Positions 5,750-58,322 of a stretch of 64,000 nucleotides of DNA are shown piece by piece; the first letter of the stretch is position 1, and each line of letters starts with the position of its first letter. The position numbers and the translations under genes are program-made. The notes under the pieces were generated by a model. It was not told the DNA's origin. It saw only the letters and a program-made list of their open reading frames with translations, and searched no databases. Source of the stretch: Pirellulales bacterium (lineage in GTDB: Bacteria; Planctomycetota; Planctomycetia; Pirellulales; PALSA-1355); contig JBFWOR010000005.1 of NCBI GenBank assembly GCA_050250435.1, forward strand, positions 170,300 to 234,299. The letters are read 5' to 3'.

Positions 5750-7087
5750 TTACGATTTGCCCCGCAGACGCTCGGCCAGCGTTGCCGGCACCGCCGCCAA
5801 CGCGACTTGCGTGCTTTCGCCCGTGGCCAGGTCCTTGATCTGGCAAGTGCCCGCCTGCCATTCGTCCGGGCCGATGATGACGGCCAGCGCAAAGCCGCGA
5901 CGGTCGGCGTATTTGAGCTGCTGGCCGATTTTCTTGGCCTCGGGATACAGCTCCACGCCGATCCTTGCGCGGCGAATCTCCGCCGCCAATCGCAAGTAGT
6001 CGTGCAGTCGCTCCGCGTCAAACAGCGGCATGAACACCGGCGCCGGCGTACTCACCTTTTGCACGAGGCCCAGCTCTTCGAGCGCCGCCAGCAACCGATC
6101 GAGTCCCAGCGACGCGCCGATGCCCGGCAACTCTTCCTTGGTGTACAGCCCGGCCAGATTGTCGTAGCGGCCGCCGGAGCACACGCTGCCAATGCCGGGC
6201 AGGCGATCCAGAAACGTTTCGAACACCGTGCCCGTGTAGTAGTCGAGCCCGCGGGCAATCGAAGGGGCGATGCGGATGCGCGCCGGTTCCACACCGGCGG
6301 CGGTCACCGCCGAGAGCAGATCCGTCAGTTTGCCCACTCCTTCTTCACCCTTCGCCGTGCCGCCCACGAGCTTCGCCAATTCGGCGAGCACATGCCGGTT
6401 GTCGCCGTCGATGTCGGCCAACGCCAACAGACCGTCGACTTGTTCGCGAGTGGCGCCGGCGACGGCGGTCATCTCGTCGGCCACTTTGTCGCGGCCCGCC
6501 TTGGCCAGCTTGTCGAGCGCCCGCAACACGAGCGCCGTCTGGTCAGACAACTCGTAGCGCTCCAGCAACCCGGCCAGCACCAACCGATTGTTGACATTGA
6601 TGGTGAAATCGCGAATGCCCAGCGCCTGGAACAAATCGTGAATCACGAGCGCCGACTCAATGTCGGCGGTCAGGGCCTTGGTGCCGATGGTGTCGAAATC
6701 GCACTGCATGAACTCGCGATAGCGGCCGCGCTGCGTGTTCTCGCCGCGCCACACCGTGGCAATGTGATAGCGCTTGAACGGCGTTCCCAGCTGGCCCACG
6801 TGCTCGGCCACAAACCGTGCCAAGGGCACCGTGAGGTCGAACCGCATGCCCACCCAGCGCCCGCCATGGTCCTGGAACTTGTAGAGCTGCTTGTCGGTCT
6901 CTTCGCTCCCCTTGCCGGTGAGGATTTCGAGGTACTCGAGTGCCGGCGTGTCGATGGGGCTGAAACCGTACGAGCGATAGACCCGCCGGGCCGTGTCGAT
7001 CAGCCACTCGCGCGGAATCATCGTCTCGGGAAGGTAGTCGCGAAAGCCCTTCAGCGTGCGGGGCTCGATACGTTTGACGTCGTTCAC
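5750..7087 (-). CDS. hisS: Histidine--tRNA ligase
   Basis: 445-aa ORF with PRTLKGFRDYLPETM, YKFQDHGGRWVGMRFDLTVPLARF and GGRYDNL class II motifs. It uses a GTG start. Confidence 0.95.
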   Translation of the reverse strand: MNDVKRIEPRTLKGFRDYLPETMIPREWLIDTARRVYRSYGFSPIDTPALEYLEILTGKGSEETDKQLYKFQDHGGRWVGMRFDLTVPLARFVAEHVGQLGTPFKRYHIATVWRGENTQRGRYREFMQCDFDTIGTKALTADIESALVIHDLFQALGIRDFTINVNNRLVLAGLLERYELSDQTALVLRALDKLAKAGRDKVADEMTAVAGATREQVDGLLALADIDGDNRHVLAELAKLVGGTAKGEEGVGKLTDLLSAVTAAGVEPARIRIAPSIARGLDYYTGTVFETFLDRLPGIGSVCSGGRYDNLAGLYTKEELPGIGASLGLDRLLAALEELGLVQKVSTPAPVFMPLFDAERLHDYLRLAAEIRRARIGVELYPEAKKIGQQLKYADRRGFALAVIIGPDEWQAGTCQIKDLATGESTQVALAAVPATLAERLRGKS

Positions 7088-7099
7088 GGTCGATCCATC

Positions 7100-7639
7100 T
7101 TAGGCGGTCAAAACCGGCAACAACGGGGGTTTGGCGCTGCGGATGCTCTGGCCCCGTTTTTTGGGCAACACAGCCTCTGCGTACTCGACCACTTGTTCCG
7201 ACGTTTCCAAATACTGCTCGTACAGCCACTCGTCCTCGTACTCGCAGTCCTTGGTGGAATACTCGCGGCAAATCATCGGCCGGGTGTGGTACACGCCGCA
7301 GCGATTGTCGCTCAGCAGGTGCTTGCAAGTCGTGTGCACCAGCAGATACCAGGTGTCGTCTTCCTTGAACAGGCTGGACGCGTCGTGCATGAGATACCAG
7401 CGCACGAATTCCCAATCGCGGGCGTCGGTCGGGGTTTCGACCGCCAGCGCAAAGTATTTGCAGCACTTGGCCGAGCAGTGATTGCACAACACGTCGCCCG
7501 GCAACAATTGTTCCCGGCGCAGCTTGGGCACGAGGGGAGGGCTGATCACGCGTGAGATTCCTGGCGTGGCAATAGGTTCGCGCGGTTCCCGCGACAGCGG
7601 CACCGCTCGCTGCCAGATTAACAAACACCCGCCCGGCAC
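7100..7639 (-). CDS. YkgJ-family cysteine-cluster protein (CxxCxxCC, UPF0153-like)
   Basis: The ORF contains CNHCSAKCCKYF ... CKHLLSDNRCGVYHTRPMICREY. The start is uncertain: GTG 7639 or GTG 7549. Confidence 0.7.
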   Translation of the reverse strand: MPGGCLLIWQRAVPLSREPREPIATPGISRVISPPLVPKLRREQLLPGDVLCNHCSAKCCKYFALAVETPTDARDWEFVRWYLMHDASSLFKEDDTWYLLVHTTCKHLLSDNRCGVYHTRPMICREYSTKDCEYEDEWLYEQYLETSEQVVEYAEAVLPKKRGQSIRSAKPPLLPVLTA

Positions 7640-23992: not shown

Positions 23993-24979
23993 CTACGGCG
24001 TTTCGACCGCGCGGACTTCGAGCAGCTGCTTGCCGCTAGGACGCGGGCTGGCATGGCTGGGGGCGATTACGGCGTCGTGCAGGTGCAAGCCGGGACCCAC
24101 AACACCCTCGTCGTTGGTGTAGATGTGGTCGCGGCAGCCGCGCGCACGGCAAGTGGTGAGATACTCGACGTGCTGATCTTCGAAGAGCACGTTCTGGCCA
24201 CAGCCGCCGTGGTTCTGCGAGTGATACGGGGCCTCAGCGCTGGGCTGGTCGGCGGCCACCGCGTAGCGCACGCGGTGCAGGTTGCGCGGCGAATAGTACT
24301 TGCCGTTCGAGTAGAAGCCGAGGTTAAAACCCAGGCTGCCGCCCATCCGCTTGCGGACTTCTGCCAGTTGGGCGCCGCGCACCGCGTAGATTTCTTGTTC
24401 CGTGGGAATGCGGAACGCCTCGGGATTATCGGCCAGGTCCGACGCCGGGCAGATCAGCAGGTCCGAGCTGTCGAGCAGCCCCATGTCGCGAAGTTTCACC
24501 GCCACGATCCCCGCGGCCGCGCAGGGCCCCTCGGCCGGAACGTTCGGGTAGAAACCGCCATGGGCTTCGCTGTAAGTGTTCAGAGCCATGCCGAAGCGCC
24601 GCAGGTTGTCCTGGCATTGGGTCACCCGGGCGGCGAAGCGGCTTTGGCTCACGGCCGGAAAAAAAAGCAAGGCCGCCGCGACGAAGATTCCCGCCGCGAC
24701 CACCATATCGGCCATCGACCATTGCCGCTGCGGCGCCGCGTAAGGCGTCGCCGGCGCCGCCAGCACGCGCGTCCGCTCGAATACGATCTGACAGGTGCGA
24801 TCGGCGAGCCCCAGCGGAGGCTCGTAGTGATTCCGATCCGCCGCCAGGGGCAGCAAACTATAGGACAATAAATCGAGCTCGCGTTGCAGTTGCGGATCGC
24901 GCTCGAGGTGGGCTTGCACTTGCTCGCGTTCGCCGGGCTCCAGCGCGTCAAGCAGGTATCCGATCAGTTGATCTCTCAT
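23993..24979 (-). CDS. Putative anti-sigma factor fused to a DUF1559 (H-X9-DG, pseudopilin-like) domain
   Basis: The start lies 9 nt after the ECF sigma stop. The N-terminus MRDQLIGYLLDALEPGEREQVQAHLERDPQLQRELDLL is anti-sigma-like but lacks Cys. The TM segment and following sequence (VVAAGIFVAAALLFFPAVSQSRFAARVTQCQDNLRRFGMALNTYSEAHGGFYP) and the C-terminal HSQNHGGCGQNVLFEDQHVEYL match the DUF1559 pattern. Confidence 0.7.
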   Translation of the reverse strand: MRDQLIGYLLDALEPGEREQVQAHLERDPQLQRELDLLSYSLLPLAADRNHYEPPLGLADRTCQIVFERTRVLAAPATPYAAPQRQWSMADMVVAAGIFVAAALLFFPAVSQSRFAARVTQCQDNLRRFGMALNTYSEAHGGFYPNVPAEGPCAAAGIVAVKLRDMGLLDSSDLLICPASDLADNPEAFRIPTEQEIYAVRGAQLAEVRKRMGGSLGFNLGFYSNGKYYSPRNLHRVRYAVAADQPSAEAPYHSQNHGGCGQNVLFEDQHVEYLTTCRARGCRDHIYTNDEGVVGPGLHLHDAVIAPSHASPRPSGKQLLEVRAVETP

Positions 24980-24988
24980 GGCGGGCGA

Positions 24989-25639
24989 TTACGGTTGGGA
25001 GGTTTCTTCGTTCTGCATCCAGGCCTCGTTCAGTTTCAAGATCGCCGAGTGGAGCCGGCTTTTCACCGTACCCACCGGGATGCTCAAAACGTCTGCCGCC
25101 TCTCTGTACTTCAGGCCTTGGTAATACACCAGATGGACCGCCTCGCGCAGCGAATCGGGCAATTGCTCAACCGCCTCGCGAATCCACTCGGTTTGTTGGC
25201 TGGCTTGGGCGCGATCCTCGGGACTTGGCTCCTTGCTTTCCAGCAGGCTCATCAACGAGCCCAACTCATCTTGTTCGTGATGCCGGGTATTTCGATCCAG
25301 GCTGACGCTGCGGTGCCGCTTGTTGCGGCGTTGCGCGTCGATCGCCTGGTTCGTCGCAATGGTGTATAGCCACGGCCGGAATTTCCGGCCCTCGTCAAAC
25401 TGGTCGCACTTCAGATGCACCTGCAGAAAGGTCGCCTGAAACGTATCTTCCGCCAGACTGGCGTCTCCCAGGTAGCGTCGCAAATAGCTGAACAACTCCC
25501 GCTCGTAGCGGTTGACCAACTCGGCAAACGCCAGCCGATCAGCGTGATCGCGGTAGGCCGACAGCAACGCTTCGTCGGACATTCCTGCCCGATCGGACGC
25601 TGCGGCCGTGGCCGGCGAGTGTCTGGTGGCCTTGTTCAT
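24989..25639 (-). CDS. ECF-type RNA polymerase sigma-70 factor
   Basis: 216-aa ORF with region 2 (FQATFLQVHLKCDQFDEGRKFRPWLYTIATNQAIDAQRR) and region 4 (LREAVHLVYYQGLKYREAADVLSIPVGTVKSRLHSAILKL). Confidence 0.92.
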   Translation of the reverse strand: MNKATRHSPATAAASDRAGMSDEALLSAYRDHADRLAFAELVNRYERELFSYLRRYLGDASLAEDTFQATFLQVHLKCDQFDEGRKFRPWLYTIATNQAIDAQRRNKRHRSVSLDRNTRHHEQDELGSLMSLLESKEPSPEDRAQASQQTEWIREAVEQLPDSLREAVHLVYYQGLKYREAADVLSIPVGTVKSRLHSAILKLNEAWMQNEETSQP

Positions 25640-26084
25640 TTCTCAATACGGGCTGGTCGGCACCGGAGTTCGCCATCCGGGAGCCGAAAAAGCCGGCAAT
25701 TTTTCACCGCGGCCGGCCGCGCGCGGTTCTGACGCATTGTATCAGACCGTGCCGCGCCGCACGCCGTCACCCGGCGGGAGCCGGCCGGCTGTCACCGGCC
25801 GCCTCAACCTACTCTACACTAGGACCTTAAGTCCACTCTGCACAGATCCGGGGAATTCGCTATAATCGCGCCGCCTATGACCATCGGGAGGAGGTCGCAG
25901 GCCGGTTGAAGCTCGCGGGCGCGGCGGCCACGCCGTCGCCGCTGCGGCCTCAACCCCTTCTCTCCCGCGGGACGCGTGAGGAGGCACCCATGCATAACCG
26001 CAAGCAAGATCGAACCATGCGCGCCCGGAAGCACGATGCCGCCCGCGGCCGCGCTGGTCACAGCGTCACAGGAGGGAGAGACGT

Positions 26085-28338: not shown

Positions 28339-28616
28339 GAATCCTCTCCTCCGACGAAGGGCGCTGCGGACACACGAACCATCAGTATCGTTGAACCACC
28401 GGGGGCGTGCAAGCGCCCGGCAACCGCCACAGGCGCGCTGCGCCCGACGAACGACACTCCTGGAGGCTCCACAAAACACACGCTGGCGGGGGCGCGCCAG
28501 CGGCCGGCAGCCCGAAACAAGCCCGGCCCTTGCGCCCCTTGGCACGCGCGCGACCGCCGACCATGATTGATCGCTGACAGCTGCCATTGCGCAGTGCATC
28601 GCTTGCGGAGTGCTCG

Positions 28617-29510
28617 GTGGAAATCGACGGCACGCACATTGAAGACACGTTTGCCGAGGCCTTCCGCATGCGCTACGTGCGGCTGGTCGTCACCGCGGCC
28701 GACGAACACTGGCTGGACGCCGGATTGCGCGAATTCACGGGCTATAGCTCGTCGATCATCTCCTGCGACAGCGAGACAGGCCTCGAGCGCCTGCTCGCCC
28801 GTGACGAAACGCCCGATGGCCGGCCCGGCGCCGCAACGCTGGTGTTCGGCTTTTCAGCTGAGTCGCTGGCTAAAGTCGTGCCCAATCGCGTCGGGCAATG
28901 CCTGATGACTTGTCCCACCACCGCCGTGTTCGACGGGCTGACGGATGGAGAAGCGCGGATCGCGCTGGGCAAGACGATTCGCTATTTCGGCGACGGCTAC
29001 CAGAAGAGCAAGCTTATCGGCGGCCGGCGCTATTGGCGCATTCCGGTCATGGACGGCGAATTTCTGATCGAGAGCATGGTACACGTCGACAAAGGCGTCG
29101 GCGGCGGCAACTTGATCGTCCAGGCAGCCACCCAAGCGGCGGCGCTGGCCGCGGCGCGGCGCGCGATCGCGGCGATCGAACCCTTGCCGGGCGTCATCAC
29201 GCCGTTTCCCGGCGGCGTGGCGCGCAGCGGCAGCAAAGTCGGCTCGCGTTACAAAGCGCTCAAGGCTTCAACGGCCGAGTCGTACTGTCCCAGCCTGCGG
29301 GGCCGGCCGGAGGTGCAGACGCGATTGGCCGACGGCGCGAACGTGGCCTATGAAATCGTGATTGACGGCGTGAGCGAGTCGGCTGTGGCCGCGGCCATGG
29401 CGGCGGGCGTGCGTGCCGCCGCAGGACCCAACGTGGTCGCCATCAGCGCCGGCAACTACGGCGGCAAGCTCGGCAAGTTTCATTTCCACTTGCGCGAGCT
29501 CGTGGGCTAG
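28617..29510 (+). CDS. ftr: Formylmethanofuran--tetrahydromethanopterin N-formyltransferase
   Basis: The ORF is 28587..29510. GTG 28617 gives a 297-aa product starting (M)EIDGTHIEDTFAEAFRMRYVRLVVTA, matching the Ftr/FhcD N-terminus as I recall it. The length is typical for Ftr. Confidence 0.88.
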   Translation: MEIDGTHIEDTFAEAFRMRYVRLVVTAADEHWLDAGLREFTGYSSSIISCDSETGLERLLARDETPDGRPGAATLVFGFSAESLAKVVPNRVGQCLMTCPTTAVFDGLTDGEARIALGKTIRYFGDGYQKSKLIGGRRYWRIPVMDGEFLIESMVHVDKGVGGGNLIVQAATQAAALAAARRAIAAIEPLPGVITPFPGGVARSGSKVGSRYKALKASTAESYCPSLRGRPEVQTRLADGANVAYEIVIDGVSESAVAAAMAAGVRAAAGPNVVAISAGNYGGKLGKFHFHLRELVG

Positions 29511-29536
29511 AGCGCCGAGCACTGCTCGGGCTGCGC

Positions 29537-30883
29537 TTAAACCAGCAACTCGGCAATCGGCTGCCCCTCGGCCAGCTTTAGCGGCCGCCCGGCGGGCGAG
29601 AGCAGCTCTTTCGCCGGGTCGATTCCCAGCGCCGCCAGCAGCGTGGCGTGAATGTCGGCCACTTGCTTGGGATTCTCCACCGTGCGGCCGCCCTCGGGAT
29701 CAGTCGCGCCGATCACGGTTCCGCCGCGGATGCGTCCGCCGGCCAACGCCATGCTGAAACCTTGCGTCCAGTGATCGCGTCCGCCCAACCGGTTGATGCG
29801 CGGAGTGCGGCCGAACTCGCCCGCCACGAGCACCAGGGTGCGGTCCCACAGCTCGTGCGTCTTGAGATCCGTCAGGAGCGCCGCCAGCGCCGGATCGAGC
29901 GTGCCTTTCCGATCGGTGTGGATCTGATGGTTGTCGACGTGACTGTCCCAGCCGTCGAGCGTCACTTCCACGCAGCGCACGCCCACGCCCACCAGCCGCC
30001 GCGCCGCCAAACAGCCGCGACCAAACGGCGTATCGCCATATGCCGCCCGCTCCCCGGCCGACGCCTGCGAAACGTCGAAGGCCGCCAACTGCTCGGAGGT
30101 CATCATTTTGCGGGCCTCGCGCACCGTCGCGCGATGCAGCGTGGCGTCCACGGCGCCGCGCCGCCCGCGGGCGAACCGCTCGTCCAGCAAGTCCAGATCG
30201 GCGAGTCGCTGTCGATAGCGCGGTTCGTCGATGCGCGAGGTCACGTCGGAAACCTTGCTGGCCGGATCGTTGGCCTGAAAGGCGTCGTACGCATCGCCCA
30301 GATAGCCGCCGCGGGCCGGCCACTGTCCAGGCAGAATGGCAATGTGCCGCGGGATTTCGGTGCCTGCCCCCGGCAGCTCGTGGCAGCAAATCGCGCCGAT
30401 CGAAGGATGCACGGCCGTCGCATCGGGCCGATAGCCGTTTTTTACCAGGTAAGTGCCACGCTCGTGGTCGCCCTCTTTGCTCACCAGCGAACGGACCAGT
30501 GCGATCGATTCCATCTGTTCGGCCACGCGCTCCAACCCGGTCGCGAAGCGCACGCCTTTGACGGCCGTCTCGATGGCCCGCGTATCGCCGGCGATTTTCT
30601 TGCCGGGGTGCGGGTCGAAGGTTTCCAGCTGGCTGGGTCCGCCGGCCAGCCACAGCACGATCAACGACTGCGCCATCGGGCGATCCGTCTGCGATGGCGC
30701 AGGCGCCCGTGCCGTCTCGTCGAGCGCCAACAACTGCGCAACGTTGGTCAGCCAGGCAGCGCCGCCCAGCGCCCCCAACTGCAGCAGCGCACGGCGATGT
30801 AGCGCGGCATGGCCTGGGAACTGGCCCGATTTTTCAGAGTCCGCGACTGAAAAATGAGGCTGCGGCCTGCGTGAATGTGTCAT
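29537..30883 (-). CDS. DUF1501 domain protein (sulfatase/phosphatase-like, Tat-type signal)
   Basis: The ORF is 29537..30928, with ATG 30883 lying 2 nt after the stop of the upstream gene. It has a twin-arginine-like HRRALLQLGALGGAAWL and the characteristic GGRDHW near the C-terminus. Confidence 0.88.
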   Translation of the reverse strand: MTHSRRPQPHFSVADSEKSGQFPGHAALHRRALLQLGALGGAAWLTNVAQLLALDETARAPAPSQTDRPMAQSLIVLWLAGGPSQLETFDPHPGKKIAGDTRAIETAVKGVRFATGLERVAEQMESIALVRSLVSKEGDHERGTYLVKNGYRPDATAVHPSIGAICCHELPGAGTEIPRHIAILPGQWPARGGYLGDAYDAFQANDPASKVSDVTSRIDEPRYRQRLADLDLLDERFARGRRGAVDATLHRATVREARKMMTSEQLAAFDVSQASAGERAAYGDTPFGRGCLAARRLVGVGVRCVEVTLDGWDSHVDNHQIHTDRKGTLDPALAALLTDLKTHELWDRTLVLVAGEFGRTPRINRLGGRDHWTQGFSMALAGGRIRGGTVIGATDPEGGRTVENPKQVADIHATLLAALGIDPAKELLSPAGRPLKLAEGQPIAELLV

Positions 30884-30885
30884 GG

Positions 30886-32571
<1,686 letters not shown>

Positions 32572-56707: not shown

Positions 56708-56890
56708 GATTGGAACGACTGCGATGCGGCCCCCTCCGGAGAGTTATCGGGATACAAGCGGGATTTCCCCAGGGAATGACCGCCCCAAAGCCGGCTTGTG
56801 GCGGCTCGGACCGGTCGCTACCCTATCGCCCCGCTCGTAGCCGCTGGCCCAGCGCTTTGAACCGTCGCCAGCCGAAATGCGTATAATGCA

Positions 56891-57328
56891 ATGATGAACA
56901 TTGCGGCAACTTTAGCGACCTGGCTCTGTATGGCACTGGTGGCCATGCCGATGACTCCTTGCGCGCTGTTGCCGCGCGTCTGCGTGCTGGCGTTTCCCGC
57001 AACAACGTCAGACGCCAACGCTGAGACCTCGGGTGATCAGACCCCCGTGGCTCATTCCTGTTGCCGCGAAGCGGCGCCGCGCTGTGATCTGGCCGAAGGC
57101 GATGCCCAAACGCATCCTCAGCCGGACAAACCCTGCCCGCGCGGCTGCTGCCGGCTGGTGCCCATTGCACCAACGGTGGACAAGGTGGTCGTGGCGCATT
57201 CGCCCCTGGTGACGGACTATGTGCCGTGCCTGGCGGATGCCGTCGGCGAATGGAATCTCGCACCGGCGCAGGAGCCGCAGCTAGCGGCCGAGACGTTGCA
57301 CGCTCTCTCCTGCCTGTGGCGTTGCTGA
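56891..57328 (+). CDS. Small exported/anchored Cys-containing protein, hypothetical
   Basis: 145-aa ORF with a hydrophobic N-terminus MMNIAATLATWLCMALVAMPM. It has 12 Cys including HSCC and PRGCC, and the C-terminus is LHALSCLWRC. It lies directly upstream of the CC-doublet protein on the same strand. Confidence 0.45.
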   Translation: MMNIAATLATWLCMALVAMPMTPCALLPRVCVLAFPATTSDANAETSGDQTPVAHSCCREAAPRCDLAEGDAQTHPQPDKPCPRGCCRLVPIAPTVDKVVVAHSPLVTDYVPCLADAVGEWNLAPAQEPQLAAETLHALSCLWRC

Positions 57329-57436
57329 TCGCTACGCGCTCTTGATCTGTGCCATGCTGCGCGCAGATTTCCGGGCGCCGAGCAGACGAACGTCGTGATT
57401 CAAAGTTTTGAGTTTCATCAGGCAAGGAGACTGTAC

Positions 57437-58147
57437 ATGTATTCCATGTTTTTCAAGTCGGCCGCCGCGCTCATGCTGGGCGTGGGGGCGTTGGTCGCTG
57501 CCAGCGGCGCTGCCGCCGACAATGCGACCAAGGACGATGCGACCAAGGACACCGCCACCAAGGCCAAGAGCTGTTGTGAGGCCAAACTCGCCTGCTGCGA
57601 CGCCAAGCGCGCCTGCTGCACCGACGAGACCAAGGCGGCCTGCTGCGCCCAGGGCATGACCTGTTGCAAGAACAACCAGGCATGCTGCGACAAGGCGTCG
57701 CAATGCTGCATCGACGGCAAGGATTGCTGCCAGGAAGGCAAAGATTGCTGCGGCAAGAAGGGCGAAGTGAAGACGGCCGCCTTGAGCGACAAGCCGGCTT
57801 GCTGCAAAGCGGCGGCTGCAGTGCTCAACGTAACGACCGCCGACACGGGCGCAGCGGCAGCCAAAAGCTGCTGTGAAGCCAAGCTCGCTTGCTGCGACGC
57901 GAAGCGCGCCTGTTGCACGGACGAGCCCAAGGCGGCCTGCTGCGCCCAGGGCATGACCTGTTGCAAGAACAATCAGGCATGCTGCGACAAGGCGCCGCAA
58001 TGCTGCATCGACGGCAAGGATTGCTGCCAGGAAGGCAAAGCCTGCTGCGACAAGAAAGGGGAAACCAAGACGGCCGAGGCCGCCAAGAACCCCTGCTGTG
58101 CCAAAGGCGCAGTCCGCGTAGCAGCTGAGCCGAAGGTCGTGCGCTAA
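57437..58147 (+). CDS. Secreted cysteine-doublet (CC) repeat protein, function unknown
   Basis: ATG 57437 lies 6 nt after AAGGAGA (57424-57430), and the signal peptide is MYSMFFKSAAALMLGVGALVAASGAAA. The mature part has 20 CC doublets and no single Cys, mostly with CC-x5-CC spacing. A strong terminator follows the gene. Confidence 0.7.
   Translation: MYSMFFKSAAALMLGVGALVAASGAAADNATKDDATKDTATKAKSCCEAKLACCDAKRACCTDETKAACCAQGMTCCKNNQACCDKASQCCIDGKDCCQEGKDCCGKKGEVKTAALSDKPACCKAAAAVLNVTTADTGAAAAKSCCEAKLACCDAKRACCTDEPKAACCAQGMTCCKNNQACCDKAPQCCIDGKDCCQEGKACCDKKGETKTAEAAKNPCCAKGAVRVAAEPKVVR
57566..58076 (+). repeat. In-frame tandem duplication inside the CC-repeat gene (offset 297 bp = 99 codons)
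   Basis: Copy 1 (57566-57779) and copy 2 (57863-58076) align without gaps. By eye there are roughly 20 mismatches in about 214 nt, including two identical stretches of more than 40 nt. Confidence 0.85.
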
Positions 58148-58176
58148 CGCGCGGCGATTGACTCGGTAGATTTTCA

Positions 58177-58220
58177 AGGCACGCGGTGGCTCACTGGGGC
58201 CGCCGCGTGCCTGTTTTGTT
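58177..58220 (+). terminator. Rho-independent terminator after the CC-repeat gene
   Basis: The stem is AGGCACGCGGTGGC (58177-58190) / GCCGCCGCGTGCCT (58199-58212), with 13 Watson-Crick pairs plus one G-U. The loop is TCACTGG, followed by GTTTTGTT. Confidence 0.7.
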
Positions 58221-58222
58221 GA

Positions 58223-58268
58223 GCGCCGGGTGTCACTGCTAACATCGCGCCGGGTGTCAACTGCTAAC
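58223..58268. repeat. Two adjacent ~21-bp direct repeats GCGCCGGGTGTCA(A)CTGCTAAC
   Basis: Copies at 58223-58243 and 58247-58268 differ by one inserted A. The second copy also forms TGTCAAC-N9-GTTGACA with 58271-58277. The repeats lie between convergent genes. Confidence 0.7.
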
Positions 58269-58322
58269 TTGTTGACAGTGCCGCTCGCAGAATCAGCCCT
58301 GCCGGGCAAGCCAGCCGATAAC

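Follow-up and report, generated by a model that had tools for sequence, protein, structure and literature searches.

What kind of protein does a bacterium export when every cysteine in it stands next to another one? This question is raised by a gene at positions 57437–58147 (+ strand) of a 64-kb stretch of DNA from a Pirellulales bacterium (the window; all coordinates refer to it unless stated otherwise). The gene (to be referred to as the CC gene) encodes a protein of 236 residues, in which two tandem modules of 20 Cys each come after a signal peptide, and it forms a cassette with a partner gene located immediately upstream. The original prediction for this DNA had left open whether the product is an exported metal-thiolate store or a disulfide-crosslinked envelope protein. 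The answer that we favour, tentatively, is that it is an exported, stress-induced, metallothionein-like thiolate protein. New here are the presence of the partner in 13 of 13 loci, a promoter of the extracytoplasmic function (ECF) type in front of the cassette, and a motif that the cassette has in common with a pair of sigma and anti-sigma factor genes.

The CC gene begins with ATG 57437, 6 nt behind a Shine-Dalgarno sequence, AAGGAGA (57424–57430, + strand), and ends with the TAA stop codon at 58145–58147. It is followed by an intrinsic terminator (58177–58222, + strand), which consists of a GC-rich hairpin with a 16-bp stem (58177–58212) and a T-run, GTTTTGTT, and has a folding z score of −4.5. 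The translation contains 40 Cys residues, all in 20 CC doublets, and no isolated Cys. The doublets have spacings of 7, 7, 9, 7, 7, 7, 7 and 7 residues in either half of the protein, and each half has a further doublet at a greater distance. Neither aromatic residues (Phe, Trp, Tyr) nor His occur in the mature part. When the mature part was shuffled 200,000 times, no shuffle was free of isolated Cys, the lowest number being 10, and the pattern is far outside chance expectation. The original prediction had described the ribosome binding site, start and stop codons, doublets and their spacing, the lack of aromatic residues and His, and the hairpin with its T-run, and each of these features is confirmed.

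The original prediction had also taken the + frame to be a genuine gene, and the data agree. The GC content at third codon positions (GC3) is 0.81 in this frame, compared to a GC content of 0.64 for the window, and the same 236-residue gene is called in a Pirellulales metagenome-assembled genome (GCA_050175055.1, contig JBFXJI010000004.1). Two other frames were considered and rejected: a GTG start at 57395, and an antisense open reading frame of 325 residues (57332–58309, − strand) that spans the whole CC gene and is a by-product of its GC-rich Ala/Cys codon content. The position of the Shine-Dalgarno sequence, the N-termini of homologues, the GC3 value and the conservation of the Cys residues all favour ATG 57437 on the + strand. 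A match to the proteobacterial small RNA sX6 of Rfam (58044–58228, + strand) was rejected as well. Its score of 28.9 bits is below the gathering score of 40, it overlaps with the terminator as well as with the 3′ end of the gene, and the terminator hairpin probably accounts for it.

The first 27 codons (57437–57517, + strand) encode a predicted Sec signal peptide, MYSMFFKSAAALMLGVGALVAASGAAA, based on n-, h- and c-region features and on conservation throughout the family. In the window protein, the signal has an n-region with a Lys residue (K7), a 13-residue h-region, AALMLGVGALVAA, with a Kyte-Doolittle value of 2.3, and an AAA cleavage-type motif before DN. An h-region of this kind is found in 134 of the 148 family members that have a complete N-terminus, and an RR-like motif in 2. 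The presence of all three regions and the lack of a twin-arginine motif support the assignment of the window protein to the Sec-exported type, and the export signal noted in the original prediction is shared by most of the family.

Relatives of the CC protein (to be referred to as the CC family) were collected with a profile search through 1.84 billion cluster representatives, which finds 253 of them at E ≤ 1e-3 and 120 at E ≤ 1e-10; a word-indexed protein search returns 11 relatives only. Nearly all members contain a single module, with about 100–160 residues and an N-terminal signal. The framework of eight spacings (7, 7, 9, 7, 7, 7, 7, 7), a linker and a tenth doublet is almost universal. 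In alignments of 44 and 78 sequences, with about 30–78% identity to module 1 of the window protein overall and 30–73% for the set of 78, 18 of the 18 core Cys residues are invariant, and one Ala and two Gly residues are near-invariant. The consensus of the module is KDCC-xxKLA-CC-xxxSA-CC-xAxxKLG-CC-xKGMK-CC-AExKA-CC-xAxQK-CC-xEGxA-CC-DEAKA-CC-G. Each spacer has conserved residues of its own, and the module is therefore a defined structure and not a generic repeat. Variation in spacing among the members is mostly located at the third and sixth gaps, which suggests that the module may be organised as three triads of doublets.

A mature module has about 85–95 residues, and the window protein is rich in Lys, Ala, Gly, Asp and Glu. 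Cys accounts for ~21% of the mature region family-wide and, in the window protein, for 40 of 209 residues (19%), while His and aromatic residues together average ~0.5 per protein. Lys or Arg is conserved beside the doublets, for example at one position in 73 of 75 sequences. These values bear out the metallothionein-like composition noted in the original prediction, and the conserved basic residues are part of the likeness. The net charge is positive in 101 of 140 members, over a range of −10 to +20. The number of Cys residues is odd in 39 of 140 members, and some variants have lost a single Cys of a doublet.

All the CC-family loci that carry a taxonomic label belong to Planctomycetota (Pirellulales, Planctomycetaceae including Gimesia, Fimbriiglobus, and unclassified Planctomycetia), in a survey that is incomplete, as a scan of genome contigs for a DNA pattern of six TGYTGY units was swamped by TGC/TGT microsatellites. 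Of the 120 pattern-scan loci listed, only 6 are true family members. The cassette is patchy and accessory-like in its distribution, and its genomic neighbourhoods are varied.

The original prediction could not place the protein in any named family, and the searches give the same result. No family match was found for the window protein in NCBIfam, PADLOC, the Protein Data Bank (PDB) or Pfam (none at E ≤ 10), and a Pfam scan of 78 members gave no match to metallothionein, granulin, Csp, Chlam_OMP3 or Chlam_OMP6 models. No name is attached to any family member in the database records or in an exact-sequence cluster look-up, and nothing on the family was found in the literature on planctomycete cysteine-rich, exported-metallothionein or vicinal-cysteine-repeat proteins. 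The CC family, the partner and the ECF-type promoter appear to be undescribed so far.

The nine doublets that form the core of module 1 are encoded at 57572–57751 (+ strand; residues 46–105), and those of module 2 at 57869–58048 (+ strand; residues 145–204). The tenth doublets are at residues 122–123 and 220–221, respectively. The two modules share 93% DNA identity, and the codon differences between them are synonymous in 11 cases and non-synonymous in 5. On this codon evidence, the window protein is the product of a recent tandem duplication of the module, followed by purifying selection. Two other loci, on syntenic Pirellulales contigs with the gene in the same ligA–SDR position (L131, positions 6529–7353 of that locus, and L132; ENA ERZ869940/ERZ869942) encode a CC protein of 274 residues, with 23 doublets and 47 Cys residues, which is made up of one full module and rearranged partial modules. 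Comparison with the window protein shows that, as judged from the gene products, module number changes rapidly between close relatives. About 1.5 modules are present in four members (P0010, P0016, P0036 and P0037), and amplification of the module has occurred independently, several times.

The partner gene is located at 56891–57328 (+ strand), adjoins the CC gene upstream, and encodes 145 residues (alignment A4). The original prediction had singled out this neighbour for a phylogenetic profile, and its linkage to the CC gene is now established: wherever the DNA of an independent locus could be read, in 13 cases out of 13, a relative of the partner immediately precedes the CC gene in the same orientation. 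The flanks of these loci differ (ligA/SDR in the Pirellulales group, PQQ propeller/DinB, methyltransferase, and YdjC/SASA/CorA in Gimesia), and a search with the partner profile returned only proteins with a CC gene following. By gene linkage, the partner is shown to be obligate for the CC gene.

The N-terminus of the partner is a hydrophobic segment that ends in an invariant Cys. There are two invariant CC motifs (HSCC and PC-PRGCC), the linkers are variable, of low complexity and rich in Pro, Ala and Ser, and the final five residues are an invariant C-x-W-x-C motif (CLWRC in the window). No match to the partner was found in Pfam, NCBIfam, PDB or PADLOC, and a canonical lipobox is found in neither of the two cassette proteins. 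The NCBI model of the partner (P0012) is shorter, with 127 residues and the start MPMTPCALL. It is probably truncated at the N-terminus, and the true start is probably ATG 56891, as the conservation of the hydrophobic residues upstream and the position of the promoter favour the 145-residue form.

A strong Shine-Dalgarno-like GGAG sequence stands at the same distance before the CC gene in all loci, and none before the partner. There is no terminator between the two genes, so they probably form one operon. A metagenomic sequence of 268 residues (P0136) combines, in one open reading frame, a partner-like N-terminal half (with LPPGWCC and CC motifs) and a CC-doublet module. Either the two genes are naturally fused here, or a frameshift has led to read-through of both. 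In one syntenic contig of 612 kb (L001; ENA ERZ25039463 contig_64148), the ligA, fumarase and SDR genes as well as the cassette are split, which is typical of uncorrected long-read frameshifts. One protein call there (P0003) is a chimera, in which the CC gene continues into the antisense strand of the SDR gene.

The promoter motif of the cassette, GAAC-N17-CGTA, is located at 56859–56883 (+ strand), with CGTA ending 7 nt before the ATG of the partner gene. Promoters of ECF sigma factors have AAC at −35 and CGT or CGTA at −10, CGTA being typical of the sigW autoregulatory promoter, and envelope stress is the typical signal to which ECF sigma factors respond (PMC5758882). The syntenic loci have conserved the motif. 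It also stands 7–11 nt before the start in 5 of 9 independent, highly diverged loci, compared to an expected number of 0.008, and none of 20,000 shuffles reaches this count. A TAAC variant of the motif is found in L122. The strict form, GAAC-N16/17-CGTA, occurs in three copies in the whole 64-kb window, each abutting a start codon. A relaxed form has 24 matches in the window, among which these three are the only ones to abut a start codon. No inverted-repeat operator and no sigma-70-type promoter was found upstream of the cassette.

The other two strict copies are located about 32 kb from the cassette, at the genes of a candidate regulator. The copy at 25647–25671 (− strand; GAAC-N17-CGTA) is 7 nt before the ATG of a gene for a SigW-like ECF sigma factor (24989–25639, − strand), in the same geometry as at the cassette promoter. 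The product of this gene matches TIGR02937 with 113.7 bits (cut-off 42.9), in addition to Sigma70_r2, r4_2 and Sigma70_ECF, and its closest models are of the SigW type. The copy at 24990–25013 (− strand; GAAC-N16-CGTA) is 10 nt before the ATG of a gene for a putative membrane-spanning anti-sigma factor (23993–24979, − strand). The product matches the ‘antisigma’ model NF052375 at 1.2e-15 with 58 bits, which is below the cut-off of 100, and it has a weak zf-HC2 match, a transmembrane segment and a DUF1559-like external part.

The motif at 25647–25671 would be the autoregulatory promoter of the sigma gene. As ECF sigma factors usually autoregulate their own genes, and as this motif is common to the sigma gene and the cassette, we infer that the cassette belongs to the regulon of the sigma factor encoded at 24989–25639. 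The distance of only 7 nt between CGTA and ATG suggests that the cassette and sigma transcripts are leaderless or near-leaderless, and the arrangement at the anti-sigma gene looks leaderless as well. Two loci of the Gimesia type, from Planctomycetaceae (L130 and L133), are missing the strict GAAC-N16/17-CGTA motif and have a gene for a CorA-family Mg/Co transporter near the cassette. Regulation may be different in this lineage, and the proximity of the CorA gene may be due to chance.

How the doublets are arranged in three dimensions was addressed with AlphaFold2. With the alignment of 78 sequences, the core is predicted with a predicted local distance difference test score (pLDDT) of ~85, and contains seven helical turns of 4–5 residues, each centred on a CC doublet. 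With an alignment of 13 sequences, the pLDDT is 50 and the model is uninformative. The model has no hydrophobic core and no match to a known fold. There is one part of the original prediction that is not supported here. It had suggested that a heptad register would bring all the thiols to the same side of an α-helix, as in a thiolate-lined bundle of the Csp type. Near-invariant Gly residues are found in the spacers (CCxxGxxCC twice, and xxKxG-CC), and Pro is frequent. Gly in mid-spacer and frequent Pro argue against a continuous helix and against a Csp-like bundle. The model has short turns and not long helices, and no Csp match was found in Pfam for the 78 members and no Csp chain in searches of the PDB. 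In a chain of ~85 residues, 20 of them Cys, that lacks a hydrophobic core, nothing but metals or disulfides can hold the structure together.

For the first of these two possibilities, a mechanism can be outlined. The cassette would be a two-gene unit restricted to Planctomycetota, with a CC protein exported by the Sec pathway and a first gene product that is membrane-tethered or exported and carries four short invariant Cys motifs on variable linkers. An extracytoplasmic stress signal would act through the autoregulated SigW-like sigma/anti-sigma pair (23993–25639) to switch on expression of the cassette. The CC doublets, on their short turns, would then wrap soft metal ions (of the Cd/Zn/Cu(I)/Hg class) as metal-thiolate clusters, the conserved Lys and Arg residues would offset the charge of the clusters, and the metal capacity would scale with the copy number of the module. 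With its own CC and CxWxC motifs, the partner could function as a membrane-proximal loader, relay or tether. It is speculation, by analogy, that a 20-Cys module holds two clusters of the limpet type. In this outline we infer that metal is bound and which metal it is, in what redox state the thiols are, what the partner does and that expression depends on the sigma factor. We propose more guardedly still that this is the first exported bacterial system of the metallothionein type, a periplasmic vicinal-Cys sponge with a variable number of modules, a membrane-tethered partner and an ECF sigma/anti-sigma switch.

Metals are favoured because of the composition, the conserved Lys and Arg residues, the expansion of modules, the loss of single Cys residues, the patchy distribution, and the precedent of a limpet metallothionein. 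Metallothioneins are operationally recognised by a low mass, a very large proportion of Cys and a scarcity or lack of aromatic residues and His, and the family shows all of these. The lack of a hydrophobic core and of a known fold in the model, and the ECF-type promoter in common with the sigma gene, also speak for this reading. In the limpet protein, a Cd-specific M4(SCys)10 cluster is formed by the γ domain, with the motif CCx5CCx4CCx6CCx7CC (PMC7826182, PMC10235030), and CCx5CCx4CC is the motif of the D2a domain of chelicerate MT2.

Several observations weigh against a metallothionein-like function. The Sec-type signal directs the CC protein to a compartment that is normally oxidising. To our knowledge, the bacterial metallothioneins that have been characterised reside in the cytosol, and metal proteins of the periplasm mostly rely on Met or His and not on thiols; MerP, Sco, CopG and Csp1 are exceptions. 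No metal pump, multicopper oxidase or metal-sensing regulator was found near the cassette in the 13 loci or in the 64-kb window, and the Pfam searches with the window protein and 78 members gave no homology to any metallothionein family. Moreover, the core was modelled at a pLDDT of ~85 in the absence of metal, and this could equally fit a disulfide-locked fold.

Such a fold is the basis of the main alternative, a serious one that we regard as somewhat less likely, in which disulfides connect the doublets in a granulin-like ladder or daisy chain, or close within each doublet as vicinal disulfides, to give a stable, protease-resistant exported scaffold. The partner would tether or crosslink this scaffold, and the cassette, as a functional analogue of chlamydial OmcA/OmcB, would be switched on under stress to make the envelope stiffer. 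The export signal in 134 of 148 members, the invariant Cys positions and spacer lengths, the mostly even number of Cys residues, the fairly confident core predicted without metal, and the envelope stress that ECF sigma factors typically answer are in agreement with it, and the partner is likewise exported or anchored, with invariant Cys motifs. Planctomycete envelopes have classically been reported as cystine-rich. The sole sequence match in the PDB is granulin-5 (2jyt), at a non-significant E of 2.3, and no homology supports a scaffold. The CC proteins are, however, highly charged and Pro-poor, without hydrophobic or aromatic residues, unlike known structural proteins of envelopes, and their patchy, accessory-like spread does not fit a core wall component. 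The predicted model consists of helical turns and not of a β-hairpin stack. The odd Cys counts in 39 of 140 members, and losses of single Cys residues without loss of a putative partner Cys, also count against it, and the formation of ten disulfides from adjacent Cys residues in ~85 residues would be a demanding oxidative fold.

The spacing of the doublets also bears on an improbable alternative, in which the protein is a periplasmic thiol buffer or decoy. The CC dithiols would be converted to vicinal disulfides and back, as a sacrificial or reversible sink for oxidants (HOCl, peroxides) or for thiol-reactive electrophiles and antibiotics, and the partner would transfer electrons or provide the contact to the membrane. 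The stress-type ECF promoter, the very high density of thiols in an exported protein and the capacity-style amplification of modules would suit a buffer, and periplasmic enzymes, methanol dehydrogenase among them, are known to have vicinal disulfides. The fixed distances between doublets and the conserved residues of each single spacer, on the other hand, point to a defined three-dimensional arrangement and not to independent dithiols, and no reductase, thioredoxin-fold or DsbD-like gene is linked to the cassette in any locus. We consider it very improbable that the product is a secreted, Cys-stabilised bioactive peptide with an antimicrobial or signalling function, for which the upstream gene would supply immunity or maturation. 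A small, exported and mostly cationic product (net positive in 101 of 140 members), a fixed Cys framework that resembles those of toxin and defensin families, and a two-gene cassette are expected in such a case. The protein is not amphipathic, however, and has almost no hydrophobic residues, its net charge spans −10 to +20 among the members, and no transporter or protease is linked. In addition, the cassette shows vertical inheritance in Pirellulales, with a constant place among housekeeping genes (ligA–SDR).

The choice between metals and disulfides has consequences beyond this locus. Metal handling in the periplasm is thought to rest on Met and His since thiols become oxidised there. If the CC proteins bind metal, an exported family with 20–47 Cys residues, all in CC pairs, breaks this rule, and if the exported metallothionein-type reading is true, bacteria are able to maintain functional thiols by the dozen in their periplasm, for buffering of metals or possibly of redox state. 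If the CC proteins are locked by disulfides, their fold would be a cystine ladder of a new kind, and they would be candidates for the cystine-rich envelope material long reported for planctomycetes. Either way, the cassette is a compact and experimentally tractable two-gene system with a clear inferred regulator and no annotation in the databases, and the CC module is attractive as a scaffold for metal capture.

Two other regions of the window were noted. A 179-residue protein encoded at 7100–7639 (− strand) has a putative zinc/iron-chelating domain with a CxxCxxCC motif (PF03692), and is unrelated to the cassette. The region 28587–32571 contains a gene for formylmethanofuran–tetrahydromethanopterin (H4MPT) formyltransferase (FTR), and a DUF1501 gene adjoining a PSCyt2/PSD1 (DUF1549/DUF1553) gene. 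This gene content is typical for planctomycetes and supports the taxonomic assignment of the DNA.

A comparison can be made with several known systems. The bacterial metallothioneins SmtA/BmtA and MymT are small and Cys-rich, like the CC protein, and sequester metals. They are, however, cytosolic, do not have the CC-only pattern or a partner gene, and have no Pfam match to the CC family; SmtA/BmtA have a zinc-finger-like fold and His ligands in addition. Csp1 and Csp3 are Cys-rich as well, and belong to the known bacterial metal stores, some of which are periplasmic (Csp1, and gonococcal NGO1701; PMC12510493). Csps bind many Cu(I) ions through thiolates (PMC9484137). They are four-helix bundles with Cys residues along long helices, and their exported members use the twin-arginine (Tat) route, whereas the CC family has turns of 4–5 residues and a Sec-type signal. 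Granulins (epithelins) are secreted, and have a core run of CC doublets 5–8 residues apart, as in the CC module. Granulins are eukaryotic, and have 12 Cys residues, including single ones, in a β-hairpin stack with six disulfides; no Pfam hit and no structural match to the granulin fold was found for the CC family.

OmcA and OmcB, encoded by adjacent genes, are exported Cys-rich proteins of the disulfide-crosslinked envelope complex of chlamydiae, members of the Planctomycetes–Verrucomicrobia–Chlamydiae (PVC) superphylum. The cassette likewise consists of two adjacent genes for Cys-rich exported proteins in this superphylum. OmcB is large (~60 kDa) and OmcA is a lipoprotein, whereas the cassette proteins have no canonical lipobox, and the Chlam_OMP3 and Chlam_OMP6 models match neither the cassette proteins nor the 78 members of the CC family.

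The closest likeness in pattern is to the γ domain of limpets (Patellogastropoda). As in the CC module, every Cys is paired, the spacers have 4–7 residues, and the domain is Cys-rich and without aromatic residues. It has evolved de novo, is used in modular fashion, and its Cd cluster has been demonstrated (PMC7826182, PMC10235030). The γ domain differs from the CC module in being animal and cytosolic, with five pairs instead of ten and an irregular spacing, and it has no sequence homology to the CC family, no signal peptide and no partner gene. The likeness is therefore convergent, and one of pattern only. Set beside these systems, the cassette would represent a new form, exported, encoded by two genes and controlled by a sigma factor, of a metal-binding protein rich in thiolates or of a protein rich in cystine.

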